Assembly: GCA_040390065.1 (NCBI GenBank)
Contig: JAZJZE010000002.1
Coordinates: forward strand, 32,931-96,930
Source of the DNA: a bacterium
Lineage (GTDB): Archaea > Thermoplasmatota > E2 > JACPAO01 > JAHFTW01
DNA length: 64,000 bases
Reading direction: 5' to 3'
The stretch's first letter is position 1. Every line of letters begins with the position of its first letter. Below the pieces are notes generated by a model that saw nothing but the letters and a program-made list of their open reading frames with translations, did no database searches and was not told where the DNA came from. Shown here one piece after another: positions 13,000-50,984 of this stretch. The position numbers were made by a program, and so were the translations under genes.

Positions 13000-13155
13000 G
13001 GCGGACCCCGGTGGCACGTTGGCCTAGTTGGCAACCCCCTGGCGCCTATTTGCGGTTTCTGGACCGAACACTGAGCCGCCAAGCCGCCTCCCGGCCCCGC
13101 CCATATTCGTTATCTAGGGGGTGGCTCTGGCGCGAAACATCCTGGTGACTGGACC

Positions 13156-25252: not shown

Positions 25253-25387
25253 GGTGTGTTCAGCTCCTCCACTTGTTGACGCCGGTATGGCCGGACCTTG
25301 CCGGCATAGGGAATGAGGGGCCGGCGTCGGCCCCCCATCCCCCGAGTGCATCCCATCCCAGCCTTGTGAGGCGAGGACCGTGAAACC

Positions 25388-29897: not shown

Positions 29898-29939
29898 GGC
29901 GCCGCGATGGGCACCGACCGGATAGCAATGACGGCGACG

Positions 29940-31817: not shown

Positions 31818-31849
31818 ACTGCGCCCACGGGTTTGCGGGTATAAGAGTC

Positions 31850-32656: not shown

Positions 32657-34141
32657 ATGCGCGCAGTTTCGGCCGTCGCCCTGCTTGCCCTCATGACCCT
32701 GGCCGGATGCACGAGCACCGAGGCGCCGCCGTCGCAGCCGCCCACGGCGCCCATGCCGACCGAGCATGGCGGGATGCTACGCACCTTCGCCGGCAACGAC
32801 ACCGTCGTGACACCTGCAGAATTCGCCGGCCTCGGCCTTGCGGTCCGGTCGACGCACCACCGCGGCGGCGAACCCAACATCGGCATCACCTCGGACGGCG
32901 CCATGTACGTCACGGCCGGCCCCGGCGTCGAGCGCTCCAACGACCTGGGGCTCACCTGGACCGAGGTGTTCAACCTCACGACGTTCTGGGGACCTGCGTA
33001 CAACCCCGAGCCGACGGGAACCGTATACGGCCTGGAGCGCTCGAGCGACGACATGCTATGGGTCGACACCGACACGGACCGGATCTTTGCCGACTTCATG
33101 ACCGGGCTGTACTGCAGCAAGCTGTACTACTCGGACGACGGCGGCGCGTCCTGGATTCCCAGCCCAATCGACTGCGGCGTGCCCGTCAACGACCACCAGA
33201 AGGTCGCCACAGGACATTATGGGCCCGACGTGCCCGTGCCCCTCAACCCGGTGTACCCGAATCTGGTCTACTACTGCTACAACAAGCTCGCGGCCTCCAG
33301 TTGCGCGGTCAGCCACGATGGCGGCCTCACCTTCAACTACGACCGCGCCGCGACCATCGCGACGACCCCGCAGCCCGATGATCCCCTGACGGTCCAGGGT
33401 CCATGCGGCGGCATCAACGGCCACCCCGCAGCCGCGCCGGACGGCACGTTGTACCTCCCGCTGAACCTGGGCTGCCCCGGCCCCGTCGTCGCCGTGTCCA
33501 CCAACAACGGCCTGTCCTACGTCAACCGCGTCGGCCCCACCGAGCACGGCGCCGAGGAAATCGACCCCGATGTCACGGTAACGCCGGACGGCACGGCCTA
33601 CATGCAATACCGTGGCTCCGACCACCTGCAGTATCTCGTGCGCAGCAAGGACCGCTTCCAGAGCTTCCAGGGACCTTGGCGAGTCTCGCCGCCCGACCTG
33701 CGCTCCACCGTCTTTGCCGGCATCACCTCGGGCGACGACGGGCGCATCGCCATGGCTTACCTTGGCACGCGCGACACGGACAAGGAGCCCTCCCTGGCAC
33801 CCAACGAGACGCGCTGGCACCTGTTCGAGACGTTGAGCTTCGACGCCGGCAACGCGACGCCGACCTTCACCACCGTGCAAGCCACGATGGACGACAGCCC
33901 CGTGCAGATCGGATGCGTTTGGCTCAATGGCGGCGGCAATCCGTGCCGCAACATGCTGGACTTCATCGACATGACGCACACTCCGGACGGGCGCCCCGTC
34001 GTGGTCTTCAGCGACGGCTGCACGGCGGGCTGCGACGGCAACCTCAACGCCACCAACAAGGACAGCCGTGGCCGGACCATCACGGTCGCGGCACTGCAGT
34101 CGGGGCCCAGCCTGCTGGCGTCGAAGGGCCGCTTCGACTGA
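32657..34141 (+). CDS. secreted BNR/Asp-box repeat (sialidase-like beta-propeller) lipoprotein
   Basis: Lipobox LALMTLAGC. BNR motifs YYSDDGGASW, SHDGGLTF, STNNGLSY. Multiple NxS/T sequons. Confidence 0.6.
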   Translation: MRAVSAVALLALMTLAGCTSTEAPPSQPPTAPMPTEHGGMLRTFAGNDTVVTPAEFAGLGLAVRSTHHRGGEPNIGITSDGAMYVTAGPGVERSNDLGLTWTEVFNLTTFWGPAYNPEPTGTVYGLERSSDDMLWVDTDTDRIFADFMTGLYCSKLYYSDDGGASWIPSPIDCGVPVNDHQKVATGHYGPDVPVPLNPVYPNLVYYCYNKLAASSCAVSHDGGLTFNYDRAATIATTPQPDDPLTVQGPCGGINGHPAAAPDGTLYLPLNLGCPGPVVAVSTNNGLSYVNRVGPTEHGAEEIDPDVTVTPDGTAYMQYRGSDHLQYLVRSKDRFQSFQGPWRVSPPDLRSTVFAGITSGDDGRIAMAYLGTRDTDKEPSLAPNETRWHLFETLSFDAGNATPTFTTVQATMDDSPVQIGCVWLNGGGNPCRNMLDFIDMTHTPDGRPVVVFSDGCTAGCDGNLNATNKDSRGRTITVAALQSGPSLLASKGRFD

Positions 34142-34366: not shown

Positions 34367-35257
34367 GTGCCCTTCGTGCTTGCTGGCTCTGGCTCCCGGG
34401 TTTTCGCCGAGAGCCTCGCCCGCGAACTTGGCACGCCGTTGGCGCGCGCCGAAACCAAGCGGTTCCCGGACGGCGAAGGCCATGTCCGCATCCTCGACCC
34501 CGCCAAAGGCCGCGATGTGGTCATCGTCCAGGCGACGGCGCCGGACACCAACCTCGTCGAACTGCTGCTGTGGCAGGACGCGGCGCGCGAAGCCGGGGCC
34601 TCCAGCATCACGACGGTCATCCCCTACCTCGGGTACGCCCGCCAGGACCGCGTCTTCCTTCCCGGGGAGGCGGTCTCGAGCCGGGCTGCGGCGCGGGCCA
34701 TCGCGGGCAGCAGCGACCGCATCATCACCATCGACCCGCACAAGGAAGAATCCATGGCCTTCTTCGGCGGCAAGGCTGCCTCCGTTTCGGCCGTGCCGCA
34801 GCTTGCCGCCGTCTTGGCCTCTTGGGGCGTCGACACGGTGCTGGCCCCCGACAAGGGGGCTCGGGCCCGAGCCGAGTCCGCGGCGCACATCATGCATGCC
34901 CGCGTCGACCACCTCGAGAAGACCCGGCTGTCGGCGACGGAGGTCGTCATGCAGGCCAAAGACCTCGACGTGCGCGGTGCCCGCGTCGCCATCGTCGACG
35001 ACCTAATTGCATCGGGCGCCACCATGCTCACGGCCGCCCGGCAACTCAAGCAGGCGGGGGCCAAGGCGGTCTACGCCGCGTGCACGCACGGGCTGTTCAC
35101 CGGCGGCTCTCCGGCCAACCTCCTGTCGGATGGCATCGATCGCCTCCTCGTCACGGACACGGTGCCGGTCGCTTCGCCGCGGCCGACCGGCCTGGACATC
35201 GTGAGCGCAGCGCCGGCCGTCGCCCGCCTGCTGAAGGTCGCGCCTACGCCCGCGTAA
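34367..35257 (+). CDS. prs: ribose-phosphate pyrophosphokinase (PRPP synthetase)
   Basis: FSGSGSRVFAESLARELG, DGEGHVRI, VIVQAT, PYLGYARQDR, VAIVDDLIASGATM PRPP-binding loop. Confidence 0.85.
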   Translation: MPFVLAGSGSRVFAESLARELGTPLARAETKRFPDGEGHVRILDPAKGRDVVIVQATAPDTNLVELLLWQDAAREAGASSITTVIPYLGYARQDRVFLPGEAVSSRAAARAIAGSSDRIITIDPHKEESMAFFGGKAASVSAVPQLAAVLASWGVDTVLAPDKGARARAESAAHIMHARVDHLEKTRLSATEVVMQAKDLDVRGARVAIVDDLIASGATMLTAARQLKQAGAKAVYAACTHGLFTGGSPANLLSDGIDRLLVTDTVPVASPRPTGLDIVSAAPAVARLLKVAPTPA

Positions 35258-36706: not shown

Positions 36707-37273
36707 CTAGCGCGGTCGTGGCACGGACTGAAACGTGTCGTCCCTCACGGCCGCCACATCCTGGCCTTCCGCGTCGGCGCGGGGCAAGGAACGCGGTCTT
36801 GCTGGGCGCCGCATCGTCCCTTCCGCATGACCCACCGCCACCGCGGGCACCTCGGCTGTGCGGCGCCGAACGGCGACGAGCGCCAGCGCGACCGACGTCG
36901 CCGTGACGAAGGCAACGATTGGGGCGGGCCGGAACATGCCGGGCACCAACGCAAGCGCAAGGGCGCAGAGCGCGGCGACCGCCGGGCCAAGCCCGAGGGC
37001 GACGACCACGTGGACCAGACGTTCGCGCCGGCTCGACTGCGGCAGTGACGCTTGCAACAGAAGGTAGCCGGGGGCAACGAGGGCCACGGCGCCGGCCGCC
37101 ATGCGCAGCAAGGAGCCGGGGGGCAGTGCGAATGCGGCAAGGGCACCGGCCAGGCAGACTCCGGCCGCAGCCACCACGTCCGCGTTGTGCGGCGCGGGGG
37201 CCCGGCCCCTTGGCGCGTCAGGCAATGGATCGTCGAGAGGCGCCGCAGCCCGCATGGGAAAACCTGCCCCCAT
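36707..37273 (-). CDS. hypothetical membrane protein (low confidence; may be non-coding)
   Basis: Only candidate ORF in an otherwise 680-bp gap. Divergent from the glycan operon. Hydrophobic stretches present but composition is Ala/Arg/Pro-rich and GC3 only moderate. Confidence 0.25.
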   Translation of the reverse strand: MGAGFPMRAAAPLDDPLPDAPRGRAPAPHNADVVAAAGVCLAGALAAFALPPGSLLRMAAGAVALVAPGYLLLQASLPQSSRRERLVHVVVALGLGPAVAALCALALALVPGMFRPAPIVAFVTATSVALALVAVRRRTAEVPAVAVGHAEGTMRRPARPRSLPRADAEGQDVAAVRDDTFQSVPRPR

Positions 37274-37387: not shown

Positions 37388-39103
37388 ATGGCCGGACGAC
37401 GCTCGATTGGGCTATCCCTTCTGTGCGGGTTGATGGCCGTGGGCGCGGTGGCGCTCGGCCTATCGCTGCGGCTACGCGACCCGTTGTCGTCTCCCGTGAT
37501 GGCCGCCGAGGACCCGTTTACGCACATGGCCTTGGTGCGCAATGACCTCGACCGCGGCTCGTTTGCCCCCCTCAACGCGGGCGAAGGCCTGTATCCGCCC
37601 GGCCTGCACGCGATGGTCGCGGTCGCCGCGTCGTTCCTCGGCACGGACCTGTACACGCTTATGGTGCTGGCGCCAGCCGTCCTAGGAGCCATCGGCGTGG
37701 CCGGCGTCGCGGTCCTGTTGTGGCGCCACGAAGGCCCAGTCGCAGCGGTGGCCGGTGCGGCGGCGTGCGCCGTTGCGCCCGAGATCATCTTCCGCTCCGG
37801 CATGATGAGCCCGACCGCCATCGACCTTGCCCTGCTGCCGTGGTTCCTCCTGGCGCTTCTCGAGGTCGTGCGCGGGCGGTTCGGCTGGCTGCTCCCCGCC
37901 ACCACCCTGGCCGTGTTCACCTTGTTCGCGCATCCGTGGCTGCTCACGGTCCTAGCCATCACGGGCGTGGCCTTCGCCGTGTTCGTTGCGACGGCACCGT
38001 GGCCTCAGGGTCGCGCACCGCTTTCCAGCCGCGGTCTTGCCGCCGCCTGCTGCATCGTCGGCGTCCCCGTGGCCCTCATGCTTTGGGGTTGCGCGGGCAC
38101 CTGCGGGGCGGGCTTTCGCGACATCTTCCCCGGCGGCGACCAGTTGCGCTTCGCGGCACCGGCGGTTGCAGCCATCACCCTCGCCGTCGCAGCGGTCCTT
38201 TGGCTGGCGGCCCGCCGGCTCGATCCCCTGCTCGCTGCCCGGCGGCCGCGGCCGACGTGGGTCCGACTCATTGCTTGCGTTGGGCTTGCGGCCGCGCTGG
38301 TCGCAATCGTCGTGCCCGCCGTCCAAGACGGCATGCCGGAATTCGTCAACCTGCCACGCATGATTGGCTGGCCCATCCTCATCCTGGCGGGAGCAGCCCT
38401 CGTGGCCTTGCCCTTTGCCGCGACACCAGTTCGCACCGCGGGCGCCGCACTGGCGGCTGCGACCCTCCCGTTCGTCCTGTACAATCCCTTTCACAGTCCA
38501 TTCTGGCCACATCGCACCGCCGTGTACCTCGCCGTGGCCGCCGCGATCCTGGCTGGCGCGGCGGTCGGCCAGGCATCCAAGGCCGCCGGGGCAGCTGTCC
38601 AGCATTGGCTGCGTCGACCGCGCCGCGCGTCGAGGCTGGCCGTGGCGCCCCTTGCGCTTGCCGCGGTCGTGCTTGTCGGCGTAGCCGGCACGGCCGACGT
38701 CGTCGCCGCCACGCCCGATCCCTATGCGTGGTATCGGCTGTACAAACCCTGCGAATTCGCCGCCCTGCAGGACATCGCAACACGCCTGGCCACGGACCGG
38801 CGTACCATTGCCGTGACCGGAGATTGGCAAGCCAAACTTGTCCTTGCAGCACTGGCGCCAAACGCGTCGCGTATCTGGTTTTCCCCGTCCTTCTTCACGT
38901 CGCCTGCCCAGCGGGATGGCCTCGTTGCCACGATGCGCCATGCCGGGACCCCGCTCGTTGCCGTGGACGACCCGCTCTTGAAGATGGGGACACCCAAGGC
39001 GGACATGCATGGCTTTGCGCCGCCGGCGTGGATGGTCCTGGGGACTTGGTGCCCCGCTCCTTCACGGCCCGCCAGCGTGACCCTGTACGGGATGACTCAA
39101 TGA
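37388..39103 (+). CDS. polytopic membrane protein with C-terminal extracytoplasmic domain; candidate GT-C-fold lipid-linked-sugar transferase (ArnT/PMT/Gtr-like role, by context)
   Basis: Start at MAGRRSIGLSLLCGLMAVGAVALG (37388). Upstream part of the track ORF is Arg/Gly-rich artefact. About 11-13 hydrophobic helices over about 400 aa. First loop carries acidic EDPFTHMALVRNDLDRG. C-terminal about 150-aa soluble domain. Stop overlaps the next start (ATGA at 39100-39103). Confidence 0.55.
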   Translation: MAGRRSIGLSLLCGLMAVGAVALGLSLRLRDPLSSPVMAAEDPFTHMALVRNDLDRGSFAPLNAGEGLYPPGLHAMVAVAASFLGTDLYTLMVLAPAVLGAIGVAGVAVLLWRHEGPVAAVAGAAACAVAPEIIFRSGMMSPTAIDLALLPWFLLALLEVVRGRFGWLLPATTLAVFTLFAHPWLLTVLAITGVAFAVFVATAPWPQGRAPLSSRGLAAACCIVGVPVALMLWGCAGTCGAGFRDIFPGGDQLRFAAPAVAAITLAVAAVLWLAARRLDPLLAARRPRPTWVRLIACVGLAAALVAIVVPAVQDGMPEFVNLPRMIGWPILILAGAALVALPFAATPVRTAGAALAAATLPFVLYNPFHSPFWPHRTAVYLAVAAAILAGAAVGQASKAAGAAVQHWLRRPRRASRLAVAPLALAAVVLVGVAGTADVVAATPDPYAWYRLYKPCEFAALQDIATRLATDRRTIAVTGDWQAKLVLAALAPNASRIWFSPSFFTSPAQRDGLVATMRHAGTPLVAVDDPLLKMGTPKADMHGFAPPAWMVLGTWCPAPSRPASVTLYGMTQ

Positions 39104-39879
39104 CACCAGCACGCCCGCCTGCCTCCCACGTCACTCTCGTGGTCCCGGCCCGCAACGAGGAGGCCGCCATCCTCGACACGCTGCGAAGCCTCCCCCTCGC
39201 AACGCTACGAGCCATGGGGTTCTCCTGTGACGTCGTCGTCCTCGACGGCCACAGCCACGACCGGACCGCCGCAATCGCGGCAGCCTGGGGCGCCACCGTG
39301 GTGCCCGACCGCGAACGCGGGAAAGGGGCCGCCCTTCGCCAAGCTCGTGGCCAACTCCAGGGAGACCTCATCGTCATGCTCGACGCCGACGGCACGTACG
39401 CCGCGGACGCCGTTCCCCGCATCGTGGCGCGCCTTGCCTGGGGCTCCGCCGACGTCGTCATGGGCCGGCGCGTTCCACAGCCGGGCTCCATGAGCGCGAC
39501 GCACCGAGCTGGGAACCGACTGCTCTCCCTTGCGGCCACCGTCCTGTACGGCCGCCGCGTGCACGACGTCTGCACGGGACTGTGGGGTCTGCGCGCCCCA
39601 GTGCTTCGCCAGCTTCCGCTGCGCAGCACCGGCTTCGGCCTCGAGGCCGAACTCTTTGGCCTGTGCGTGCGCACGGGCTGCACCATCGCAGAGGTGCGCG
39701 TCGACTACCTGCCCCGGCGCGGTGTTGCAAAACTGACCCTCGGCCGCGACGGCATGCGCATCGCCCGACGGCTCGTCCGGACGCGCCTTGCACGCCTCCC
39801 GAGGCCAGATGCTGCGGCGCCCCAAGCGGCGCTCGACGCCGCCCGGCCAGCCATCCGCGTCGGGCAGGAGGGACCGTGA
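39100..39879 (+). CDS. GT2 glycosyltransferase, polyprenyl/dolichyl-phosphate sugar synthase family (Dpm1/ArnC/GtrB-like)
   Basis: VTLVVPARNEE, VVVLDGHSHDRT, LIVMLDADGTY (DAD motif), GRRV..., VCTGLWGLR. 259 aa. Start overlaps previous stop. Stop overlaps next start (GTGA at 39876-39879). Confidence 0.75.
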   Translation: MTPARPPASHVTLVVPARNEEAAILDTLRSLPLATLRAMGFSCDVVVLDGHSHDRTAAIAAAWGATVVPDRERGKGAALRQARGQLQGDLIVMLDADGTYAADAVPRIVARLAWGSADVVMGRRVPQPGSMSATHRAGNRLLSLAATVLYGRRVHDVCTGLWGLRAPVLRQLPLRSTGFGLEAELFGLCVRTGCTIAEVRVDYLPRRGVAKLTLGRDGMRIARRLVRTRLARLPRPDAAAPQAALDAARPAIRVGQEGP

Positions 39880-41363
39880 GCCCCCGCCTGGCGGCCATGG
39901 CCTTGGCCGCGGTCCTTGCCGCTGGCTGCGTGATCGGCCCTCGCGGCAGCGCATCGCGGCCGCCGTTTGCGCCGACCGTCGAATCCTGGGACTGGAACGC
40001 GACGGGTCGCGAACCGTCCCTGACACAATCGTTTGGCGCTGGCACTATGCTCGCCAACGTCGGTCGCGGCGAACTCTTCGACGTGACGCCGACGACGTAC
40101 GACATCGATGGCGATGGCGTCGACGAAGTAATCGCGCAGGGCAACGACACGCATGTGCACGTCTTCCGGCTCGATTCGGGCCGCGACGTGGCCGACCTGC
40201 CGACGACCATCCCGTCGCATTGGTACGTCGAACGCGTCCTCAACGTCGTGGCCGCCGGCGTCCTGGCACCCGGTGAGCCGCCCTCCCTTGTCGTCGCGAA
40301 CCATGCCGCGTACGTGGCCGCCTGGCGCTTCGACCGCGCCGCAAGCACGACGGATCACTTTGCTTTCCAGCGCACGTGGGAGCACAGGATGGACGGCTGC
40401 TATCCGACACCCAGCATGGACGCCGGCGTCGCCCTCGCCGATGACGGCGCAGGCCGCAAGACCATCCTCGTGCAGACGGAAGAGACCGGAATCTACGGGC
40501 TTGCGCCCGACGGCACGACCCTCTGGCACCAATGCATCGGCGGCGGCAACGCCGCGCCCGCCGTGGACGACCTCGACGGCGACGGCCGACAGGAAGCCAT
40601 CTTCGGCTCCGACGAAGGCATCCTGACCGTCGTCGATGCCGCGAGCGGCCAGCCGCGATGGGCCGTCAACGTGGCGACCGCGTACAAGACGTGGCCCGGC
40701 TCGATGAGTGTGACGCCCACGACCGCCGAACTCGACGGGCAGCCGCCGCGCGAGGTCCTGTTCACGGCCCGGCATGCCTGGAGCGCCGACGCGGCCGTCC
40801 TGCCGCAGGAGCACATGGGCATCTTCGCGGTGCACGGCGACGACAAGGGCGCCGCGACCGTGCTGTGGCACCTCGAACCGTCCTGGGCGAACCCGACGAG
40901 TTACACGCGCCTGGTCGCCACCGATTCCGACAGTGACGGCCGCATGGACATCTTCGGCATGGACTGGAACACCATCGGGCACTACCCCGGGGACTGGGAG
41001 CGCCTGAACCGTTCGCACATCTTCCGCCTCGACACCGCGGGCAACCAGGTGTGGGTGCGGACCATCGAGGCCTGGTGGTCCAACAAGGATATCGCCGTCG
41101 GGGACTTCGATGGCGACGGCCGGGCGGAAGTCCTTGCCAACGCGCCACGCCTCGGCTCCGATGGATTCTGGCGCCTCGACGCCGCGACGGGCACGACGGA
41201 AGGCACCCTGTCATTCGGCGACTGGAAGGTCCTGCGCGGCCCCGCCTTTGCGGACCTTCGCCACGACGGCCATGCCACGATGCTTGTGGCCCTCGAATCG
41301 CTTGCGACACCGGGCCGCGGCGCCCTCGTCGACGTCGACTTGGGGGGCGGGGTCGCCGCATGA
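39876..41363 (+). CDS. FG-GAP repeat beta-propeller lipoprotein
   Basis: GTG start at 39876, or ATG at 39897. Lipobox LAAVLAAGC. FG-GAP Ca-binding repeats YDIDGDGVDEVIAQG, DDLDGDGRQEAIFGSD, TDSDSDGRMDIFGMD, GDFDGDGRAEVLANA, ADLRHDGHATMLVA. Confidence 0.65.
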   Translation: MSPRLAAMALAAVLAAGCVIGPRGSASRPPFAPTVESWDWNATGREPSLTQSFGAGTMLANVGRGELFDVTPTTYDIDGDGVDEVIAQGNDTHVHVFRLDSGRDVADLPTTIPSHWYVERVLNVVAAGVLAPGEPPSLVVANHAAYVAAWRFDRAASTTDHFAFQRTWEHRMDGCYPTPSMDAGVALADDGAGRKTILVQTEETGIYGLAPDGTTLWHQCIGGGNAAPAVDDLDGDGRQEAIFGSDEGILTVVDAASGQPRWAVNVATAYKTWPGSMSVTPTTAELDGQPPREVLFTARHAWSADAAVLPQEHMGIFAVHGDDKGAATVLWHLEPSWANPTSYTRLVATDSDSDGRMDIFGMDWNTIGHYPGDWERLNRSHIFRLDTAGNQVWVRTIEAWWSNKDIAVGDFDGDGRAEVLANAPRLGSDGFWRLDAATGTTEGTLSFGDWKVLRGPAFADLRHDGHATMLVALESLATPGRGALVDVDLGGGVAA

Positions 41364-43405
41364 AACCATTCTGGGCAACTCGCCTCGTGCAAGTTGCATG
41401 CGTCCTTGCCCTCGCCGCGCCGCTGTCCATCCCGACGCCGGCTGCCGCGGCACCCACGCGCGCCCTGGCCATCACGAACGCAAGCGCGCACCCGACCGTT
41501 CCGTTTGCGGGCTTCGACGGCAACCCGCCCAAGGTCTTCGACGTCAACGGCGACGGCCGCCTCGAGATCATCGCCCAGAACGACAACCAATGGGTGTACG
41601 TCTTCGACTCGGCGTCAGGGGCCATCCTGTTCCAGGCGACGACGACGCTGCCGCCGGGCTGGGGGGCGCGTAGCTTCAATGGCCCCGAGGTGGCCCTCAT
41701 GACGCAAGGCGGCGCAGTCCACCTCGTGGTCGCCAACTCGGCGGCCACCGTCACGATGTTCCGCTTCGATGCCGTCGCGAGCACCAGCACGCACTTCGCC
41801 TTCGTGAAGGAGTGGGAACGCCGACTGTCAGACTGCTTCTCCACGCCGGGGATGGACGCCAAGCCTGTCCTGGCCGACCTCGACGGCGACGGCACGTTCG
41901 AGATCATCGCCGCCACGGAGGAGCAAGGCATCTATGCGCTGCGAGCCAACGGCCAGGTCTTGTGGAAGAACTGCATGGGCGGCGGCAACGCGGAGCCCGG
42001 CATCGGCGACTTGAACCGCGATGGCACACCCGACATCGTGTACGGCTCCGACGGTGGCATCGTCTCCGCCCTGGACGGCCGCACCGGGTCGTTCCTCTGG
42101 ACCTACAACGTGCTTGCCCACTTCAACCTGGGTTCAGGCAGCATGCCCGTGGGGCCCGCCGTTGCGCAGTTGGATGGGTTGGCAGGCCCGGACGTCGTGG
42201 TCGGCGCACGCGACAGCCACGACGCGTCGAACTGGTCGAACGACCACGCCTTGCTTCTCGCCCTCGACTCGAGCGGCCGCCTGCTGTGGGGCCGCCAGGA
42301 CCCGCAAGGCAACCCACTGACGTACAGCCATGCCGTCGTGGCCGACGCAGCAGGCGACGGCGTACCCGAGGTGTATTGGGGCGACTGGAACACGATCGGC
42401 CACAAGCCGCCGTTCGACGAGTCGCAGGCCTGGAAAGGCACGGGCCCCGCGCACTTCTACCGATATGACCGCTCGGGGAACCTGGTTTGGCGCCAGACTC
42501 TCGGCACCTGGTGGAGCAACAAGGACGTCCCACTGGCCGACGTCGACGGGGACGGGGTCCAGGACATGATCGCCAATGGCCCGAATGCAGGCGGCCACGA
42601 CGGCTTGTGGTCCCTCGACTCGCGCACCGGCGCCAAGGAATCCTTCGTCGACCTCTGGCCGTGGAAGCTCGCCCGTGCCCCCGTCGTCGCCGACCTGGCC
42701 GGAAACGGCATGATGCAACTCGTCGCCGAAGTGGGCCAGCTCGACCCGTCTGCCGGCGGCGCGGCCATCCTCGTCTACGACACCGGCAAGCCCTACAGTT
42801 CGGCGTGGCCACACCTGCCGTACCCGACTGTCGGCCCAGCGCCCCCGCCATCCGGCTTCTTCAACGCGACGTTCACCATCAAGGCCCCGAATGCGTGGTG
42901 GCAGGAACTCACCGTCACGCCGCAGACGCCGCGCACCATCACGCAGGCGCAAGTCCGCGTGTCCGGCGGCGCGTGGCTCCCAATGTCCAAGAGCTCCTGG
43001 GGGGCGTGGACGTCGTCCTACCATACCGTGGCTGGGACGAAGGTGGAATTCCTCGCCACCTCATCGGACGGCGCGCAGTCGCAGAGCCAGCCGTTTACGT
43101 GGCTCGACGGCAACCTGTCCCATGGAAGTGTCCCGCCCGGCTCGCCGCCGCCGTCCTCCTTTTCGGCGACGTTCTCGCCCTCATCCAACATCAACGAGTG
43201 GTGGGTCGAGGTGGCCGTCACCGCATCCGACCCGCTTGCCAAGGTGGAGGCCAACGTCAACGGCGGCCCGTGGACCGGCCTCGACGCAACGAGTTGGGGG
43301 ACTTGGGCCAAGAGCTTCCACGTCGCAAGCGGCTCCGCCGTGCAGTTCCGTGCAACGAGCACCTCGGGCGACGCGGCGACAAGCAGCACGTACACCTGGC
43401 CGTGA
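41360..43405 (+). CDS. FG-GAP repeat beta-propeller secreted protein with C-terminal beta-sandwich (carbohydrate-binding-like) domains
   Basis: ATG overlaps previous stop (ATGA). Signal peptide. FG-GAP repeats FDVNGDGRLEIIAQND, ADLDGDGTFEIIAAT, GDLNRDGTPDIVYGSD, ADAAGDGVPEVYWGD, ADVDGDGVQDMIANG, ADLAGNGMMQLVA. Two C-terminal about 100-aa repeats (..WWQELTVTPQ..VRVSGGAW.. / ..WWVEVAVTASD..VNGGPW..). Confidence 0.65.
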   Translation: MKPFWATRLVQVACVLALAAPLSIPTPAAAAPTRALAITNASAHPTVPFAGFDGNPPKVFDVNGDGRLEIIAQNDNQWVYVFDSASGAILFQATTTLPPGWGARSFNGPEVALMTQGGAVHLVVANSAATVTMFRFDAVASTSTHFAFVKEWERRLSDCFSTPGMDAKPVLADLDGDGTFEIIAATEEQGIYALRANGQVLWKNCMGGGNAEPGIGDLNRDGTPDIVYGSDGGIVSALDGRTGSFLWTYNVLAHFNLGSGSMPVGPAVAQLDGLAGPDVVVGARDSHDASNWSNDHALLLALDSSGRLLWGRQDPQGNPLTYSHAVVADAAGDGVPEVYWGDWNTIGHKPPFDESQAWKGTGPAHFYRYDRSGNLVWRQTLGTWWSNKDVPLADVDGDGVQDMIANGPNAGGHDGLWSLDSRTGAKESFVDLWPWKLARAPVVADLAGNGMMQLVAEVGQLDPSAGGAAILVYDTGKPYSSAWPHLPYPTVGPAPPPSGFFNATFTIKAPNAWWQELTVTPQTPRTITQAQVRVSGGAWLPMSKSSWGAWTSSYHTVAGTKVEFLATSSDGAQSQSQPFTWLDGNLSHGSVPPGSPPPSSFSATFSPSSNINEWWVEVAVTASDPLAKVEANVNGGPWTGLDATSWGTWAKSFHVASGSAVQFRATSTSGDAATSSTYTWP

Positions 43406-43409
43406 TGCC

Positions 43410-44597
43410 ATGGAGCCGTTGCGCCTGACCCTCGTCTCCCCATTCGACCCGAGCCCGCCGGAACGCGCCGACCGCCGAGCCCACGTCGGCGGCGTCGAAC
43501 GCGCCTACCTTGAGACCGCCCGCCTGCTTGCGGCGCGGGGCCATGACGTCACCCTCGTCTGCTCGAGTGCCGGTCGCCACAACGTGGCCGTGGAGCACGG
43601 CGTCCTCATGGTGCGTCGGCCGCGACGCATGACAATCCTTCGCGCCCCCGTGGCGAGCCTCGCCAAGGAAATCGGCCGCGACGGCGGCCTCGTCCAGGTC
43701 GCGGCAACGTACCCGTTCACGACGGGCCCGGTGCTGCGCCGTGCGCGCCGCCTCGGGCTTCCAGCAGTGCTGGACTTCCACTTCGAACCCGTGCCCGGGA
43801 GCGTGCTTGGCCGCCTCGGAGCCGCCGCCTTCCGCCGCGCAGGGCCGCGCGCCTATTCCCTGGCCGACGCCGTCATCGTACGCTCCCTTGGCTATGCGCA
43901 GAGCGCCCCGAGCCTGGCGAACGTGCCGCCGTCGGCCCTCCGCGTCGTTCCCAACGGCATCGCCACCGAACGCTTCCGGCCCGCCTCGGACGCAACCCGC
44001 GAAGGCCACATCCTCTTCGTCGGGCGGCTGGTCCCATACAAGGGCCTCGACGTCCTGCTGGACGCCCTGCACGGCCTGCGAGCCCGCGTTCCGCTGGTGG
44101 TGGCCGGGGACGGGCCGCTGCGCCGCCGACTGGAAGGCAGAGCCCGACGGCTTGGCCTCCCCGTGCGATTCCTCGGGCGGGTGCCAGACGACGCCCTACC
44201 TCGCCTCTACCAACAGGCGGAAGCCACCGTCCTGCCCAGCGTCAACAGCCAGGAAGCGTTCGGCATCACGCTGCTCGAGAGCATGGCATGCGGGACGCCC
44301 GTCATCGCGTCGGACCTTCCGGGCGTCGGCATGGTTGCCCGCCTGGGCGGCGTCGTCGCCCGCCCCGCAGATGCGCGCAGCCTCGCGGGCGCCATCCGGG
44401 CCGCACTCTCTGGCCCGCCGCTTCCGCGGGGCCGAGCGCTCGCCGACCGCATCCACGCCGACTTCTCGTGGTCTGCCGTGACGGACCGCCTCGAAAGCGT
44501 GTACAAGGAGGTCCTTGCCGCCCATGCGGACCGGGGTCGCTCGGGCGGCCGGGAGGTGACAAGCCATGCGCATCCTCGCGGCCAGCCCGTACTATGA
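43410..44597 (+). CDS. GT4-family glycosyltransferase
   Basis: N-terminal GT-B domain. C-terminal ILFVGRLVPYKGLDVLLDA, ...EAFGITLLESMACGTPVIASDLPGV. Starts 5 nt after the previous stop. Confidence 0.75.
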   Translation: MEPLRLTLVSPFDPSPPERADRRAHVGGVERAYLETARLLAARGHDVTLVCSSAGRHNVAVEHGVLMVRRPRRMTILRAPVASLAKEIGRDGGLVQVAATYPFTTGPVLRRARRLGLPAVLDFHFEPVPGSVLGRLGAAAFRRAGPRAYSLADAVIVRSLGYAQSAPSLANVPPSALRVVPNGIATERFRPASDATREGHILFVGRLVPYKGLDVLLDALHGLRARVPLVVAGDGPLRRRLEGRARRLGLPVRFLGRVPDDALPRLYQQAEATVLPSVNSQEAFGITLLESMACGTPVIASDLPGVGMVARLGGVVARPADARSLAGAIRAALSGPPLPRGRALADRIHADFSWSAVTDRLESVYKEVLAAHADRGRSGGREVTSHAHPRGQPVL

Positions 44598-45693
44598 ACC
44601 GGAGGGTGGCGGCCTCGAACGGTACGAGCACGAGATCCTCAAGCGCCTTGCCGCACGCGGCCACGACGTGCACGCCGTCGCCTTCACGCGCCGCAGCTTG
44701 CCGGACCGCCTGCGCGACGGCGTGGCGGTGCAACGCATGGCTCCCGCTTTCACCGTAGGCAACACGCCAATCCACCCGCGCCTTGCCTCACACCTTACGC
44801 GCATGGTGCGCCGCATCGAGCCGGACGTCATCGTGGGCCACACTCCCGTGCCGTACACTGCGGAACGTGCAAGCCGTGTTGCCCAGCGCATGGGGCGTCC
44901 CTTCGTCGCCACGTACCACGCAGGGCGGCTGCATGGCAGCTCGCGGACCCTCGAAGCCCTCGCCGCACTCGACCGCGCCACCGCCGAGCGTCGCATGCTG
45001 GGCACAAGCGCCGGCCTCATCGCCGTCAGCCCCTTCGTGCGGGACCATGCCCTGGCGCGCCATCGTGACCGGGTGACGGTTGTCCGACCTGGCGTCGATA
45101 CCAATCGCTTCTGTCCAAACGGACTCCGCGTGACGCACGACATCCTGTTCGTCGGCCCGCTCTCCTCCCGCTACCGCTGGAAGGGCGTCGACGTCCTGTG
45201 GCGCGCCTTCCAACTCGTGCGGACACGCATGCCCGAGGCGGGCTTGGTCCTGGTGGGGAGAGGCGACCGTCTGGCGGAGTTCCGGCGCCGAGCGGCGCAT
45301 GACGGAGACCGCATCCGCCTGCCGGGCCACGTCACCGAGAACGACCTCGTCGAGGAGTACCGGCGTGCGGCCATGCTCGTGCTGCCGAGCACGACGGACG
45401 CGGAGGCGTTCGGTCTGGTGCTCGCGGAGGCGAACGCCTGCGGCCGCCCTGTCATCGGCTCACGCGTCGGCGGCATCCCCGACTTCGTGCGGCACGGCGA
45501 CAACGGGTTGCTCTGCGACATCGGCGACCCAAGCGACCTGGCGGACCGAATCGTCGAAGTGCTGGCCGACCCCCAGCGGGCGACGGCGATGGGAGCCAAC
45601 GGCCGTGCCCGCGTCGTCGCCGAGCACGATTGGGACAAGGCTGCTGACGCGACCGAGACCGTCCTCGAGCGGGCCCGCAGCTCGCCAGGCTAG
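44566..45693 (+). CDS. GT4-family glycosyltransferase
   Basis: ILFVGPLSSRYRWKGVDVL, EAFGLVLAEANACGRPVIGSRVGGIPDFV (E-x7-E-type motif). Overlaps previous gene by 32 nt. Confidence 0.75.
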   Translation: MRILAASPYYEPEGGGLERYEHEILKRLAARGHDVHAVAFTRRSLPDRLRDGVAVQRMAPAFTVGNTPIHPRLASHLTRMVRRIEPDVIVGHTPVPYTAERASRVAQRMGRPFVATYHAGRLHGSSRTLEALAALDRATAERRMLGTSAGLIAVSPFVRDHALARHRDRVTVVRPGVDTNRFCPNGLRVTHDILFVGPLSSRYRWKGVDVLWRAFQLVRTRMPEAGLVLVGRGDRLAEFRRRAAHDGDRIRLPGHVTENDLVEEYRRAAMLVLPSTTDAEAFGLVLAEANACGRPVIGSRVGGIPDFVRHGDNGLLCDIGDPSDLADRIVEVLADPQRATAMGANGRARVVAEHDWDKAADATETVLERARSSPG

Positions 45694-45700: not shown

Positions 45701-46735
45701 TCACTGCAAGGTGGCGTGACGCAACGCCTCGAGGGTGCGGATGGGGCGGGCACCGGGCGCCGCCACCTCACGGAGGAGTTTGTGGGCCTCGGCGGCAGGA
45801 ATCTTGCCGTCGCGAGCCGCGCGCAGCAGTTTGAGCGTCGCGACACGGATTTGCCCGGTGGGATGCGGCGCCATGCGATGGGCCCCAGGGACCAGCGGGG
45901 CTCGCCACATGTACCAAAGCCGCTCGGCCAGGCCGTCGCGGCGACCATACGCATCCAGGGTCGGCAGGCCCGCGTGGCGCAATGCGGCGGGGACGGCGTC
46001 GAGGACCGCAGCGCGTGCGCTGCGCCATGCGGCCCACGGGTCGGCGATGCGCGCCTGAGCGGGGTCGACCTTGCGCACGTAGGCCCAGCGCAGGGCGTCG
46101 CCAAACGGCACGAGGGCGGCCGGCGCGGCACCGTCGGCCACCAAGCCATTGTAGATTGCCCAACGCTCGGTCTGGCTAGGGGCAAAGCGCCCCAAGGCAA
46201 GCAGGTGCGCGTCCAACGCCGCAAGCAGGGCCTTGCTGGACTGGATCTGCAGGTCGTGCGGGTGTCCCTCCTCGGCGGCAATCAGCAAGCCCGCGGCGCG
46301 GTTGACGAGCAGCCGAAGACCTTCGCGGCGGTCGAGTTGCGAGGGCGTCCGCACGCGGATGCGCCCCAACAGGTTGTCCCCCCACAGCACGCGGCCCCGG
46401 GCGCGCGTCTCGTACCAGAAGATGGAACGGGACACAAAGCGCAGGCGGGCGACTCCGACGGGCGCGAGGTCGACGTGCATGCGCAGTCGGTCCTCGAGCG
46501 TCAACCGCATGCGGCGGTACGAGACGCGCGCCGGGCCGATGCCGCGCAATGCGACGAGGTCGTAGTCGTTCTGCGGCTGCCCATCCAACACGGCCCCCTC
46601 GCCGCGGGCAAACGCACCGGTCAGAACAAGCGAACGCAGGGCGGGGTCGCCGGCGCGTACGATCCGGACCGCGGCCGCCAGGTCGGTCTCCACGCGCGCG
46701 ACAAGGGCCGGCGTGTCGTGCACCGTGTAAGCCAT
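45701..46735 (-). CDS. nucleotidyltransferase-domain (Pol-beta superfamily) protein
   Basis: Start at MAYTVHDTPALV (46735). LVLTGAFARGEG...DYDLV resembles the hG[GS]xxxGxx...[DE]h[DE]h NTase motif. About 250-aa C-terminal helical region. Confidence 0.45.
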   Translation of the reverse strand: MAYTVHDTPALVARVETDLAAAVRIVRAGDPALRSLVLTGAFARGEGAVLDGQPQNDYDLVALRGIGPARVSYRRMRLTLEDRLRMHVDLAPVGVARLRFVSRSIFWYETRARGRVLWGDNLLGRIRVRTPSQLDRREGLRLLVNRAAGLLIAAEEGHPHDLQIQSSKALLAALDAHLLALGRFAPSQTERWAIYNGLVADGAAPAALVPFGDALRWAYVRKVDPAQARIADPWAAWRSARAAVLDAVPAALRHAGLPTLDAYGRRDGLAERLWYMWRAPLVPGAHRMAPHPTGQIRVATLKLLRAARDGKIPAAEAHKLLREVAAPGARPIRTLEALRHATLQ

Positions 46736-46737
46736 GG

Positions 46738-48021
46738 TTACGGCCTTGCCTTCGGGGGCGCGGCGGCCACGCGCAGGCCGGGCCGTTCGCGCACGACGTC
46801 GCCAAGCAGGCTGTGCCCTTCCTGGCCGTCGGGCGTGGGCACGGCGAGGAGTGCGCACAAGGTCGGGAATACGTCGACCAGCGGTCGCCGGCCAACGTCC
46901 TTCGGACCTGCCAGGCCGTCGCTGGACAGCAAGGCCATCATGCCGTGCGTCTCGTCCGCCTTGTCGAGGTAGCCGTGCATGCCGCGGATGACCGAGTCCT
47001 TGACGTGGAAGTAGTCGGGCCAGAACAACACGCCTCGGTCTGCTGCGAGCATGCGGTCCCCCCACCGACGGTCCATGGGGATGCGCAGGTGGCGACGTTC
47101 GTCGTCAGGCAGGACGCGTGTGCCTGGGATGGTAGGCAAGACAGCCTCGACTTCGCGCCGGCCCGCATCAGTCAGATACCAGAAGACGGCAAGGGTGCTG
47201 TTGACGAAGACGACGTAGTCCTTGGCAGGCCGCGCGTGGCATTTGCGCAAGGCATGCAGCAGGTCCACCCGGCGTTCGACTTGCCCCATGCCGTGGTCGC
47301 CGCACACGAACAGGTCCCAGGAATCGTAGCCGGCCCCGAGTGCTGCGTGGATGCTGGCGAGCCGACGGTCGAGACGGCGCAGGAACCCATCGCGCATTGC
47401 GGCTGCGTGCGGCCCGTGCTTGTGGCCTTGCTGGTCGGTCACGCTGAACTGCGCCACGTACAGGTCATACGGGGCGCCGGCCCGCAAGTCGCGCACCAGG
47501 AGGTCGTGCACTTCGTCGTCGTCGCCGCTCACGGGATGGGCCAGGTAGCGGAAATTCAGTCCATGGGCACGGCACAAGTCGAAGATGCTCGTTGCCCGGA
47601 GTGCACCCGGCTCGTAGATTGGCCGCATGTCCTCGCACATGGCAAAGAACGGGAGGAAGCGCGGGGGGATCCACGCGGGGTCGGTGTGGAAGGCGCCCGT
47701 GCGCCACTTGGTGATGCGTTGGATGGCCATGCGCGCCGGGAACATCAGCTTGCGCGGGCGGACCAGGTTCCCGACGGGCCCGAGGCCGCGCACCCAACGG
47801 AACGGCGAGCCGTCGGGATCGAAGACGAACTGGCTGAAGTTGCCGGACGTGTCGGGGTACTGCCCGGAGAACATCACGGTGCGCTGCGCGAAGCCGGGCG
47901 GACTCTCGAACGATCCCGTGACGGCGTCCCGCGACAGGCGGTGCAGGAACGGCATGGACGATTCGCTGACGTAGTCGAATCGTCCGGCATCGATGATGAG
48001 GAAGACGGTTGCGTGGGTCAT
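46738..48021 (-). CDS. alkaline-phosphatase-superfamily enzyme (type I phosphodiesterase/nucleotide pyrophosphatase-like)
   Basis: FLIIDAGRFDY N-terminal metal-site motif, CGDHGM metal-binding DHG. 427 aa. Confidence 0.65.
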   Translation of the reverse strand: MTHATVFLIIDAGRFDYVSESSMPFLHRLSRDAVTGSFESPPGFAQRTVMFSGQYPDTSGNFSQFVFDPDGSPFRWVRGLGPVGNLVRPRKLMFPARMAIQRITKWRTGAFHTDPAWIPPRFLPFFAMCEDMRPIYEPGALRATSIFDLCRAHGLNFRYLAHPVSGDDDEVHDLLVRDLRAGAPYDLYVAQFSVTDQQGHKHGPHAAAMRDGFLRRLDRRLASIHAALGAGYDSWDLFVCGDHGMGQVERRVDLLHALRKCHARPAKDYVVFVNSTLAVFWYLTDAGRREVEAVLPTIPGTRVLPDDERRHLRIPMDRRWGDRMLAADRGVLFWPDYFHVKDSVIRGMHGYLDKADETHGMMALLSSDGLAGPKDVGRRPLVDVFPTLCALLAVPTPDGQEGHSLLGDVVRERPGLRVAAAPPKARP

Positions 48022-48030: not shown

Positions 48031-48990
48031 TCAGTGGCCGGGCTCCGGCCCGGGTGTTTCTTGCGGACCCCCTGGGGCCCGCGACGTTGCGCCGGCGACG
48101 AGTCCGGCAAGGAATACGAGGTCGAAGATGGGACTTAGAAGGACGCCCAGCACGCGGGCCATGGCGGGCATTCCCTTGTGCGGACGCAGGGCGCGTCGCA
48201 GGGTCGGAAGCCATAGGAGAACCATGAGGGCAAGGAGGGCGGCGGGCGTCGGAAAGGCGACGACAAGGAGGAGCAGGGCGGCAAGGGCAATGCCCCACGA
48301 GGCGTGCGCGGGCCAGCCGATTGTGCTTGCATACATGGCGCATCCAATTCCTTCACGGAGGTTCTTGCGCAGTTCGGCGCGGGCCGATCCGACGTCGTGG
48401 TGGTGGACGACGAGGGCCGGGTCGTACGTCGCAGACGCCCCATCCCGCACGGCGCGCCGGGCCAGCAGGAGGTCCTCGGCGGCATTGGCCCAAGGGTCGA
48501 ACGGGTGCTGCAGGAGGATGTTCTTGCGGTAGGCCGCCGCGACGTTCGAGGCGTAGCGCAGCGGCTGCTCGACCCGGGATTCGGGGAAGGCGTACCGCAG
48601 ACCGCGCACGGCGGCGCCGACTCCCCATCGGCGCGGGGCGTGCACCTGGCGGCTGAACGCCATGTCGTGTCCCTCGAGTGCTTGCAGCGCACGGGCGGCC
48701 CAGTTAGGGTCCAGTTCTGCATCCGCACTGAGGAAGGCGACTGCGTCGGCCCGTGCAACGGCGACGCCGAGATTGCGGGCCTCGCCGATGGGCAGACGGT
48801 GCGGCGCATCGACGAGGCGCAGCGGGACGGGGAAGGACCGTTGGGCCGCGCGCACCGCGGCGACCGTGCCATCGGTGCTGGCGGCATCCACGACGATGAC
48901 CTCGATGAGCTGCTCCGACTGCGCCGCAAGCGATCCGAGGCAAGCGGCAATGGAGCGTTCCTCATTCCATGTGAGCACGACCACCGACAT
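48031..48990 (-). CDS. GT2-family glycosyltransferase with C-terminal membrane segments
   Basis: Start at MSVVVLTWNEE (48990). VIVVDAASTDGT, AFLSADAE (DxD-like). Hydrophobic C-terminus. Confidence 0.7.
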   Translation of the reverse strand: MSVVVLTWNEERSIAACLGSLAAQSEQLIEVIVVDAASTDGTVAAVRAAQRSFPVPLRLVDAPHRLPIGEARNLGVAVARADAVAFLSADAELDPNWAARALQALEGHDMAFSRQVHAPRRWGVGAAVRGLRYAFPESRVEQPLRYASNVAAAYRKNILLQHPFDPWANAAEDLLLARRAVRDGASATYDPALVVHHHDVGSARAELRKNLREGIGCAMYASTIGWPAHASWGIALAALLLLVVAFPTPAALLALMVLLWLPTLRRALRPHKGMPAMARVLGVLLSPIFDLVFLAGLVAGATSRAPGGPQETPGPEPGH

Positions 48991-50270: not shown

Positions 50271-50984
50271 CTAGGCGGCCGCGGGTGCTTGGTCGCTCGC
50301 GGGTGCGCCTGCGTCGGGCCCGTCCGGGGGCGATGGAACTGTCAAGGGGTGCTCGGCCTGGGCAGCAAGCACACGCCGCACGAAATCCTCGTTGGCAAGC
50401 GCGTACCACGTCCCGTCACGGCCCCGCTCCTTGCGCAGGTCTCCGGAGCGCACCATGCGGTGGAGGTGGTATCCGAGCGTCGAGTCGGCGCAGCCCAGGC
50501 GCCGCCGCAATTCCGTGCGACCGAGGGGACCCGTCATGAGGATGCGACCGATGCGGCGCGGCACGGCCCGCGAGAAGCGGGCAAGTCCCGGGCGCAGGTC
50601 CGGAGTATGGTCGGCGGCCGCGAAGAAGCGGCGGTAGCGCCCGTCCTCCACTTCGACGACGGCCCCTTGCCGTTCCAGGCGGTCCAGATGGTGCCGCAAT
50701 TGGCCGGCCGACGAGAGGAGTGCAGCGCGTCCAAGGCCGCGGAAATGGATGCCCGGATTGTCCCTCACGATGCCGTAGATTCGGTGGCCAACGTCGCCGG
50801 CAGGGGGCACGTTTGCGCTGGCCGGGGAGATGGGGCGCGGCCGGGGAGGGCGGGCGAGGCGCGACGGAGCCGGGAAGGACACCGATGGCTCGGCGCGGGC
50901 CGGCAGTCCAACGTCGTTGCCAAGGGGCACTTGCCCCGGCAACACGGGTGCTGCGGTCTCTGGTTCAAGCGTGTCGTCGGCCAT
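50271..50984 (-). CDS. transcription regulator with tandem winged-helix domains
   Basis: Start at MADDTLEPE (50984). Two wHTH-like segments (HRIYGIVRDNPGIHFRGLGRAALLSSAGQLRHHLDRLERQGAVVEVEDGRYRRFF ; LGRTELRRRLGCADSTLGYHLHRMVRSGDLRKERGRDGTWYAL). Confidence 0.5.
   Translation of the reverse strand: MADDTLEPETAAPVLPGQVPLGNDVGLPARAEPSVSFPAPSRLARPPRPRPISPASANVPPAGDVGHRIYGIVRDNPGIHFRGLGRAALLSSAGQLRHHLDRLERQGAVVEVEDGRYRRFFAAADHTPDLRPGLARFSRAVPRRIGRILMTGPLGRTELRRRLGCADSTLGYHLHRMVRSGDLRKERGRDGTWYALANEDFVRRVLAAQAEHPLTVPSPPDGPDAGAPASDQAPAAA

Follow-up and report, generated by a model that had tools for sequence, protein, structure and literature searches.

We find that a cluster of six genes in a 64,000-nucleotide stretch of DNA (GCA_040390065.1, contig JAZJZE010000002.1, positions 32,931 to 96,930; the whole stretch is called the window in the following) contains a module which recurs in approximately 30 loci of uncultured Thermoplasmatota. 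On balance, we are slightly inclined to read this module as a lineage-specific archaeal system for extracytoplasmic glycosylation, built on the three-component plan and equipped with propellers that bind glycan. Besides a divergent gene for a small DUF1616-like membrane protein, the module comprises g1 (37388-39103), encoding a 571-aa membrane protein with 13 predicted transmembrane (TM) helices that is modelled as a GT-C-fold glycosyltransferase, g2 (39100-39879), encoding a 259-aa GT2 of the polyprenyl- or dolichyl-phosphate hexose synthase type, and g3 (39876-41363) and g4 (41360-43405), encoding FG-GAP beta-propeller proteins of 495 and 681 aa. In the window it is followed by two genes for GT4 glycosyltransferases, g5 (43410-44597) and g6 (44566-45693). 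All six frames lie on the + strand and are open throughout (37388-45693), with a GC content at the third codon position (GC3) of 0.80-0.87 and position 1 above position 2, the coding pattern of DNA with 68% GC. An earlier inspection of the window (the sequence-only reading) had called one GT2, two FG-GAP and two GT4 proteins, and these domain calls are borne out by Pfam and NCBIfam.

The AlphaFold2 model of g1, for which an alignment of 41 sequences served as input, has a pLDDT of 85.4 and a pTM of 0.87 and consists of the 13 TM helices followed by a C-terminal alpha/beta domain (approximately aa 454-571). The predicted topology places the basic N-terminus inside and the C-terminal domain outside. 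When the model was compared with known structures by Foldseek, all 20 significant matches were GT-C proteins and the best 12 were catalytic subunits of oligosaccharyltransferases (OSTs); the best match, with the C-terminal domain included, is a protein glycosyltransferase. The sequence-only reading had taken g1 for a GT-C enzyme like ArnT or PMT, of which the fold stands, whereas the closest relatives in structure are the OSTs AglB, STT3 and PglB. Only the fold comparison revealed this for g1 itself: a profile of the g1 family retrieved nothing relevant among PDB sequences, g1 had no match to Pfam STT3 at E <= 0.1, and it matched neither Pfam PMT_2 nor PMT. Pfam gives a marginal match to DUF6541 (PF20176; 30.6 bits vs a cut-off of 29), in which g1 residues 10-233 align with 93-334 of the 646 model positions, and many g1 homologues have no precomputed DUF6541 match. 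An exhaustive search of 1.84 billion representative proteins found 262 relatives of g1.

Invariant residues are shared by all members of the g1 alignment. The sequence A-E41-D42-P-[YF]-T-H46 is found in 41 out of 41 members, 11 residues past TM1, and the model topology places E41-D42 in the first outer loop. Further invariant residues are E132, R136, D146, H182, R376 and W448-Y449-R450, the latter at the position equivalent to the WWDYG motif of OSTs. The motifs that define OSTs, and the length of external loop 5 (EL5) in AfAglB, have been described (PMC8342417), and we looked for each of them. WWDYG is found in 0/41 members and is also absent from a six-frame translation of the window; DGGK, which has been implicated in binding of lipid-linked oligosaccharide (PMC8342417), and DK are likewise found in 0/41. 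MI-like strings occur in 2/41 members, and TIXE-like sequences ([TS][IV]xE) in 2/41, at columns that are not conserved. EL5 of g1 is approximately 13 residues long (315-327) and contains no invariant acidic residue, compared to 44 residues in AfAglB. A canonical OST role for g1 failed these motif tests and was rejected, and because the OST motifs are not conserved we regard the modelled protein as a GT-C enzyme with STT3-like architecture that is not a canonical oligosaccharyltransferase. g1 has the 13 TM helices as well as a globular domain at the C-terminus in common with AglB, STT3 and PglB (GT66), but it is shorter (571 aa vs 868), lacks WWDYG, DGGK, DK and a conserved TIXE and, unlike these proteins, invariably has a Dpm1-like GT2 and propeller proteins as partners.

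A second line of evidence for the fold comes from a sister subfamily that matches the g1 profile at E of approximately 1e-58 (member P0244; in the following, P-numbers denote proteins and L001-L039 the loci compared). P0244 matches Pfam PMT_2 with 41 bits (cut-off 26.1), and the sister subfamily weakly matches STT3. Since the sister passes PMT_2, g1 is tied to the GT-C clan at the sequence level, if only transitively, and its GT-C fold is hence supported by two independent methods, Foldseek and the sister-subfamily link. The sister g1-like proteins are shorter than g1, and their gene lies directly 3' of, and overlaps, a gene for a cellulose-synthase-like GT2 of approximately 790 aa (L036:5644-9584 and the P0343 locus). 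A GH26 glycanase gene is found near the pair, with LEA_2 and V4R genes upstream, and in P0246 (1174 aa) the cellulose-synthase-like GT2 and a g1-like domain are naturally fused. This context suggests that the wider g1 family had its ancestral setting in polysaccharide biosynthesis. The sister pair may be an undescribed archaeal exopolysaccharide synthase complex, and the sister subfamily suggests a broader, unrecognised role of these GT-C proteins in archaeal exopolysaccharide synthesis.

The partner of g1 was proposed by the sequence-only reading to be a Dpm1/ArnC-like lipid-phosphate-sugar synthase, and our searches agree: the nearest solved relatives of g2 among PDB sequences are ArnC and the dolichyl-phosphate mannose (Dol-P-Man) synthase of P. 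furiosus (PfDPMS). The protein matches Pfam Glycos_transf_2 with 74.4 bits and contains a DxD sequence (D95-A-D97); its best NCBIfam match is AglJ (150.6 bits vs a cut-off of 325), and the NCBIfam Dol-P-hexose transferase model gives 109 bits (cut-off 375). No TM helix was found in g2 by hydropathy. The gene is translationally coupled to g1 in the window and adjoins g1 in every locus with downstream sequence; in the loci with gene calls the g1/g2 junction is an overlap of 1-4 nt or a gap of a few nt. This invariable adjacency to a Dpm1/AglJ/ArnC-like GT2 suggests that the donor of g1 would be a lipid-phosphate-sugar.

The third constituent is a pair of propeller proteins. The g3 protein is an 8-bladed FG-GAP beta-propeller (structure model with pLDDT 88.8; FG-GAP_3 44.6 bits, cut-off 26.9), whereas the FG-GAP propeller of g4 (FG-GAP_3 67.9 bits, same cut-off) ends at approximately 42830, after which come two CBM63/expansin-D2-like modules in tandem (42830-43402, +; approximately 85 aa per module), found by profile search of the PDB; DxDxDG-type loops are visible in both sequences. 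Both had been thought to be lipoproteins. For g3 this is a candidate assignment, with a putative tethering lipobox that reads AAGC in the window and LLAGC in the family consensus, which is found in most orthologs (a few have an N-terminal TM anchor in its place), but the signal peptide of g4 is an ordinary Sec-type one that ends in ...AEA/ATT and has no lipobox. Neither protein has a C-terminal sorting signal. The g3-type and g4-type genes are paralogs, with 36-44% identity in cross-matches, and share invariant loop motifs rich in W, H, N and D; the non-structural invariant motifs of g3, C-x-GGGN, GMDWNTIGH and WWSNKD, are common to g4. The g3 family has more than 140 members, of which those with a taxon name are from Thermoplasmatota or other archaeal metagenome-assembled genomes (MAGs), and its mean column identity is 54%, vs 46% for g1.

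A profile of the g4 C-terminus matches EXLX1 in the PDB at E 7.5e-4 and four more chains of the expansin/Phl p 2 type, including YoaJ and Phl p 2, at E 0.009-0.08; Pfam Expansin_C gives 20.5 bits vs a cut-off of 24.6, and the tail modules have conserved aromatic residues. In g4 orthologs of L007, L008, L017 and L024 the modules are separated by poly-Ser/Thr runs (up to approximately 40 residues) or by poly-Pro. Such linkers are often O-glycosylated in secreted carbohydrate-binding proteins; the linker of the window g4 is short. S8 proteases, other secreted proteins and a 697-aa protein carry the g4-type CBM63-like module at their C-terminus in related loci (L001:18290-20383, L002:16968-18854 and L004:16438-18510). 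The module may serve as a lineage-wide attachment to surface glycan.

A scan of one genome per GTDB species gave 28 g1 loci, all from Thermoplasmatota, and their layout was established from gene calls around four g1 homologues together with a tblastn map of all loci. The core order is a divergent gene for a DUF1616-like protein with 4 TM helices followed by g1, g2 and then g3 and/or g4, and propeller genes are found 3' of g2 in 21 of the 25 loci with enough downstream DNA. The linkage was also examined in the reverse direction, starting from three g3-family proteins that are encoded on long contigs and are absent from the list of g1 matches: in 3/3 the g3-family gene lies directly 3' of the series DUF1616, membrane protein, GT2. 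The linkage of the propellers to the GT2/GT-C pair, on which the sequence-only reading had staked its proposal, is therefore conserved. In addition, the whole module is duplicated within genomes (L008/L016 and L014/L024), with 41-42% identity between the g1 copies and 55-63% between those of g2-g4, and the pairwise identities of g1, g2 and g3 across loci correlate with r = 0.71-0.84. Two types of loci can be distinguished. In the first, an archaeosortase gene (Exosortase_EpsH) is found upstream (L001, L002, L004, L013, L016 and L030), usually with an S8 protease gene downstream; in the second, which includes the window, the module is followed by the GT4 pair and then by four genes, d1-d4. L038 and L039 repeat the six-gene order of the window together with the convergent d1, and L038 with d2 as well. 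We considered a link of the module to archaeosortase but dropped it, as the window has no archaeosortase and g3 and g4 lack a C-terminal sorting signal.

The six genes of the window had been described as chained by overlapping stop and start signals, and the overlaps are confirmed: g1/g2 by ATGA at 39100, g2/g3 by GTGA at 39876 with a GGAGG sequence 6-10 nt upstream, g3/g4 by ATGA at 41360, and g5/g6 by a 32-nt overlap with the ribosome-binding site GGAGGTGA located 5' of the g6 ATG. GGAGG-type ribosome-binding sites thus precede g3 and g6. The gap between g4 and g5 is 4 nt and not 5 as first stated. The g5/g6 overlap is also present in L024 and L029. When the related loci are compared, the g1/g2 junction is the one that is tight throughout, while the g2-g3 and g3-g4 spacing ranges from a 4-nt overlap to approximately 275 nt, so that the proposed stoichiometric expression of all six genes is a property of some loci only. 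A bacterial terminator scan found no terminator-like site on the + strand inside the cluster and one on the minus strand; a bacterial promoter scan, the models of which do not cover archaeal promoters, returned 0 promoters and was uninformative, and no AT-rich box is obvious in the 114-nt divergent spacer upstream of g1.

Several genes around the module encode further proteins with a possible part in glycan synthesis. Divergent from g1 lies the gene for the DUF1616-like membrane protein (36707-37273, -; 188 aa, approximately 4 TM; Pfam DUF1616 32.3 bits vs a cut-off of 31.6), orthologs of which are found directly 5' of g1 in nearly all loci; its four hydrophobic segments are accompanied by the invariant residues D32, R57, P68-G69, R85 and F114-R115. 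Downstream, g5 encodes a cytoplasmic GT4 (Glycos_transf_1 121 bits, Glyco_transf_4 62.6 bits) and g6 a second one (Glyco_transf_4 87.8 bits, Glycos_transf_1 115.4 bits), neither of which reaches an NCBIfam equivalog cut-off. Orthologs of g5 (55-62% identity) are located directly 3' of g4 in L015, L018, L024, L029, L031, L038 and L039 and near the module in L001 and L025. Convergent with g6 on the - strand is d1 (45701-46738), which encodes an accessory protein of approximately 345 aa with a nucleotidyltransferase-like G-x-G...DxD motif, is 57% identical to the L004 gene 20243-21346 and is found beside the module in L015, L018, L019, L024, L031, L038 and L039. It is followed on the same strand by d2 (46738-48021), encoding a phosphodiesterase of the alkaline-phosphatase superfamily without signal peptide (Phosphodiest 64.7 bits) and co-located with the module in L005, L018, L019, L031, L037 and L038; by d3 (48031-48993), encoding a GT2 with GtrB/ArnC-like topology (Glycos_transf_2 83 bits; two C-terminal TM helices, within aa 274-351 of the long open reading frame) and co-located in L005, L018, L019, L031 and L037; and by d4 (48962-50260), which encodes a 432-aa membrane protein with approximately 12 TM helices by hydropathy and has orthologs in L005, L023 and L037. 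For d1 and d4 no Pfam, NCBIfam or PDB sequence relative was found, even at E <= 10. Many loci have the convergent set d1-d4 adjacent to the module, and in L005 it accompanies a distant g1 paralog. The DUF1616-like protein is a candidate flippase or accessory subunit and d4 a candidate flippase or polymerase, although neither matches the GtrA, SMR, MATE or MOP families; with two such candidates at hand, the earlier claim that the propellers stand in place of the usual flippase is not established.

The genome is filed as bacterial, and the proteins of the source MAG carry the NCBI label '[bacterium]'. However, among the 59 g1 homologues (40-51% identity), those with a taxon name are all from Thermoplasmatota/Thermoplasmata archaea, a few being labelled Halobacteriales, and the window itself contains archaeal signs such as an HTH_HVO_0163-type regulator (approximately 50355-50792) and DUF7121 (13075-14205). 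From these relatives and window genes the sequences identify the host as a high-GC Thermoplasmatota archaeon, and the label 'bacterium' is probably too coarse or wrong. In an archaeal host, dolichyl phosphate is the lipid carrier to be expected, and the Agl pathways are the appropriate comparators. The lipid-sugar scheme of the sequence-only reading is thereby retained, but its polyprenyl-phosphate carrier is replaced by dolichyl phosphate and its comparators by AglJ, AglD/AglR/AglS and AglB.

The arrangement of a GT2 gene beside genes for a GT-C protein and a small multi-TM protein is like that in the GtrB/GtrA/GtrC, ArnC/ArnE-F/ArnT, CsbB/GtcA/YfhO and GT136 systems (PMC11127046). The module differs from these three-component systems in being archaeal, in that g2 has no TM helices and the small protein is DUF1616-like and not GtrA, SMR or MATE, in its GT-C protein with an STT3-type C-terminal domain, and in the two dedicated beta-propellers as constant extra parts. 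An archaeal precedent for the donor logic is known from Haloferax volcanii, in which AglD, AglR and AglS form a Dol-P-mannose route to the terminal mannose of the N-glycan, that is, a Dol-P-hexose synthase, a flippase and an outward-facing Dol-P-hexose-dependent transferase (PMC3871713). There, aglD is located apart from the other agl genes (PMC3871713), the acceptor is a protein-bound tetrasaccharide, and propeller partners are not known. The actinobacterial GT-C proteins that work with Ppm1, namely Pmt, MptA-B and Emb-Aft, have structural scores to g1 below those of the OSTs and belong to another domain of life. The propeller of g3 resembles BamB and V. cholerae Bap1, but archaea have no outer membrane or BAM complex, g3 and g4 have no beta-prism domain such as that of Bap1/RbmC, and their own invariant motifs C-x-GGGN, DWNTIGH and WWSNKD were matched to no family. 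Finally, in profile searches both tail modules of g4 are weakly similar to expansin domain 2/CBM63, with matches to EXLX1, YoaJ, further expansins of bacteria and Phl p 2, whereas g4 lacks expansin domain 1 and carries its modules in tandem and attached to a propeller; in related loci they occur on S8 proteases.

We suggest the following scheme for the module. On the cytoplasmic face, g2, as a peripheral protein, would use a nucleotide sugar to charge dolichyl phosphate with a hexose, as expected from its family membership, and the lipid-linked sugar would then be flipped across the membrane by the DUF1616-like 4-TM protein or by d4. Outside the cell, g1, as its fold and motifs lead us to propose, would transfer the sugar to an acceptor other than the Asn-X-Ser/Thr sequon. 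The glycan product could be a surface polysaccharide, a lipoglycan or the glycan of a glycoprotein, and g3 and g4 would bind, position or process it. In the version of the module found in the window, g5, g6 and the convergent d1-d4 might contribute cytoplasmic reactions, either to this glycan pathway or to one coupled with it. We favor an active role of the propellers as glycan partners because they are more conserved than g1, because they share invariant loop motifs, because g4 has a CBM63-like tail, and because of the context of the sister subfamily; their role as passive acceptor substrates, which had been among the initial suggestions, is less likely for the same reasons.

A number of observations weigh against this scheme. 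The scheme infers its donor sugar, its acceptor and its flippase, and similarity of the DUF1616-like protein to GtrA and SMR flippases was not detectable. The g2 protein is below every NCBIfam equivalog cut-off and lacks the C-terminal TM helices of GtrB, ArnC and PfDPMS. Human DPM1 also lacks a TM helix, so the missing helix does not exclude synthase activity. The closest fold of g1 is that of an OST and two GT4 genes belong to the same operon, which leaves room for an oligosaccharide as the donor. The CBM63 similarity of the g4 tail is weak (E 7.5e-4, with Pfam under the cut-off), and the fold search with the propeller matches generic 8-bladed propellers such as BamB and WD40, with no carbohydrate-active enzyme near the top. 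Four loci (L005, L012, L019 and L023) have no propeller genes beside g1-g2; the gene 3' of g2 encodes an HTH_10 regulator in L019 and L023 and a sensor-kinase-like protein in L012, and d-type genes are found in L005, L019 and L023. Lastly, all loci are from one archaeal lineage and the flanking housekeeping genes are partly syntenic too, so that part of the linkage may reflect shared descent.

Shared descent could in principle account for the whole linkage. The propeller proteins would then be independent adhesins or BamB-like scaffolds, while g1 and g2 would perform a general decoration, for example addition of an AglS-like terminal sugar to the N-glycan. In keeping with this, the flanking HSP20, helix-turn-helix regulator and malate synthase genes are syntenic among the closest loci of the single lineage, some loci have g2-g3 and g3-g4 spacers as long as 230-275 nt, with room for separate promoters, and four loci do without propellers. 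Nevertheless, the linkage holds when the upstream context is changed (L006, L038 and L039 vs L001-L004) and at 40-47% g1 identity, and it survives two ancient intragenomic duplications of the module as well as the 3/3 reverse look-up. Given the duplication and reverse tests, linkage by descent alone is unlikely, and we consider this explanation as a whole very improbable. Another option is a second Agl-type pathway, in which g2 primes dolichyl phosphate like AglJ, g5, g6 and d3 extend the glycan, d4 flips it, and g1 transfers it en bloc. The best NCBIfam match of g2 is indeed AglJ and the closest fold of g1 AglB, d4 is a 12-TM protein of no known family, and the six-gene order with GT4 genes, with d1 and d2 nearby, recurs in L015, L024, L029, L038 and L039. 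On the other hand, GT4 and d genes are missing from the vicinity of g1-g2-g3-g4 in the archaeosortase-linked loci (L001, L002, L004, L013, L016 and L030) and in others, which leaves the GT2 as the sole constant transferase partner of g1; strict translational coupling is confined to g1-g2, and g1 has neither DGGK nor the long EL5 (PMC8342417). En bloc transfer therefore seems rather improbable to us.

If the system glycosylates proteins, an STT3-derived g1 without sequon recognition would O-glycosylate, or modify at non-sequon sites, specific secreted proteins with Dol-P-hexose made by g2, as in Dpm1/PMT; the acceptors could be g3 and g4, or the Ser/Thr/Pro-rich linkers of CBM63-bearing or TM-anchored surface proteins. 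This possibility draws on the protein glycosyltransferase that is the best structural match of g1, C-terminal domain included, on W448-Y449-R450, which at the position of WWDYG could form an altered acceptor pocket, and on the co-inheritance and co-duplication of the enzyme with specific secreted proteins. Poly-Ser/Thr or poly-Pro linkers are present in g4 orthologs, Ser/Thr/Ala/Gly-rich stalks precede the membrane anchors of surface proteins in the window, and neither the machinery nor the pathway of archaeal O-glycosylation has been identified (PMC8241124). However, passive substrates would not be expected to exceed the enzyme in conservation or to have invariant loop motifs with aromatic, His and Asn residues in common between paralogs, we identified no acceptor motif that is conserved, the g4 linker of the window is short, and the context of the sister subfamily points to polysaccharide synthesis. 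We therefore regard protein glycosylation as doubtful, if far from negligible. A more far-reaching version, in which g1 is a new GT-C family, descended from or sister to the OSTs, that together with g2 constitutes the missing archaeal O-linked or non-sequon protein glycosylation, with g3 and g4 as subunits that it cannot do without outside the cell, either to present substrates or to retain the product, is speculative and, in our estimate, unlikely to be correct. We prefer the extracytoplasmic glycosylation system with glycan-binding propeller partners outlined above.

The window also encodes five large secreted proteins with thrombospondin type-3 repeats combined with FG-GAP, Kelch or PKD domains (1068-6563(-), 6609-8183(-), 8003-10498(-), 10534-13023(-) and 29940-31847(-)). 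At the C-terminus of all five, a stalk rich in Ser/Thr/Ala/Gly is followed by a single TM helix and a basic tail, which is the tripartite layout of an exosortase/archaeosortase sorting signal; an archaeosortase gene is located beside the g1 module in related genomes and is absent from the window. The first of the five had been put forward as a target of the system, as an 1814-aa protein at 1068-6512. It is a protein of 1831 aa with FG-GAP/TSP_3 domains (1068-6563, -), and we find nothing that supports this role. The density of N-glycosylation sequons in the window surface proteins is low and uninformative. Upstream of the module are a gene for a BNR/sialidase-like propeller (32657-34141, +) and one for a class-I methyltransferase (31751-32599); BNR_2 genes are likewise present close to the module (L001) and to the sister gene (L035). 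The phosphoribosyl pyrophosphate (PRPP) synthetase gene at 34367-35257 was considered as a clue to a pentofuranose donor and was discarded, since it has the score of an ordinary ribose-phosphate diphosphokinase and is located outside the conserved module. Unrelated to the module are genes for an FtsZ whose tubulin domain is preceded by an N-terminal extension of approximately 70 aa, for an ArsA/Get3-type ATPase and for a GH57 protein with a weak polysaccharide-deacetylase match (24053-25387(-), 28818-29939(-) and 61861-63291(-)).

We found no paper that mentions DUF6541, and the one use of DUF1616 that we came across is for naming a glycoprotein in glycoproteomics work on Haloferax. Papers that combine GT-C and FG-GAP in archaea were not found, and literature searches that extended to AglB paralogs gave no description of the module. 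This is in line with the original suspicion that the glycosylation system is undescribed. The component superfamilies and the donor logic are already known; what is new is a GT-C family with OST architecture but without OST motifs, its fixed tie to two propellers, and the archaeal setting.

The surface glycobiology of archaea outside a few model organisms is largely unknown. In g1, a protein with the shape of the N-glycosylation catalyst keeps the acidic pair, lacks the motifs for sequon and lipid-linked oligosaccharide, and is locked to a Dol-P-sugar synthase and two propellers. If g1 does work with propeller subunits it would, to our knowledge, be the first GT-C enzyme with dedicated subunits of this kind. 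In conclusion, characterisation of the module would establish a new family of GT-C proteins and reveal in what way the STT3 scaffold is open to retargeting. To extracytoplasmic glycosylation systems it would add a new kind of accessory subunit, namely a propeller that may or may not carry CBM63-like modules. The module could also explain how the envelope is built in Thermoplasmatota that are widespread in soil and sediment.

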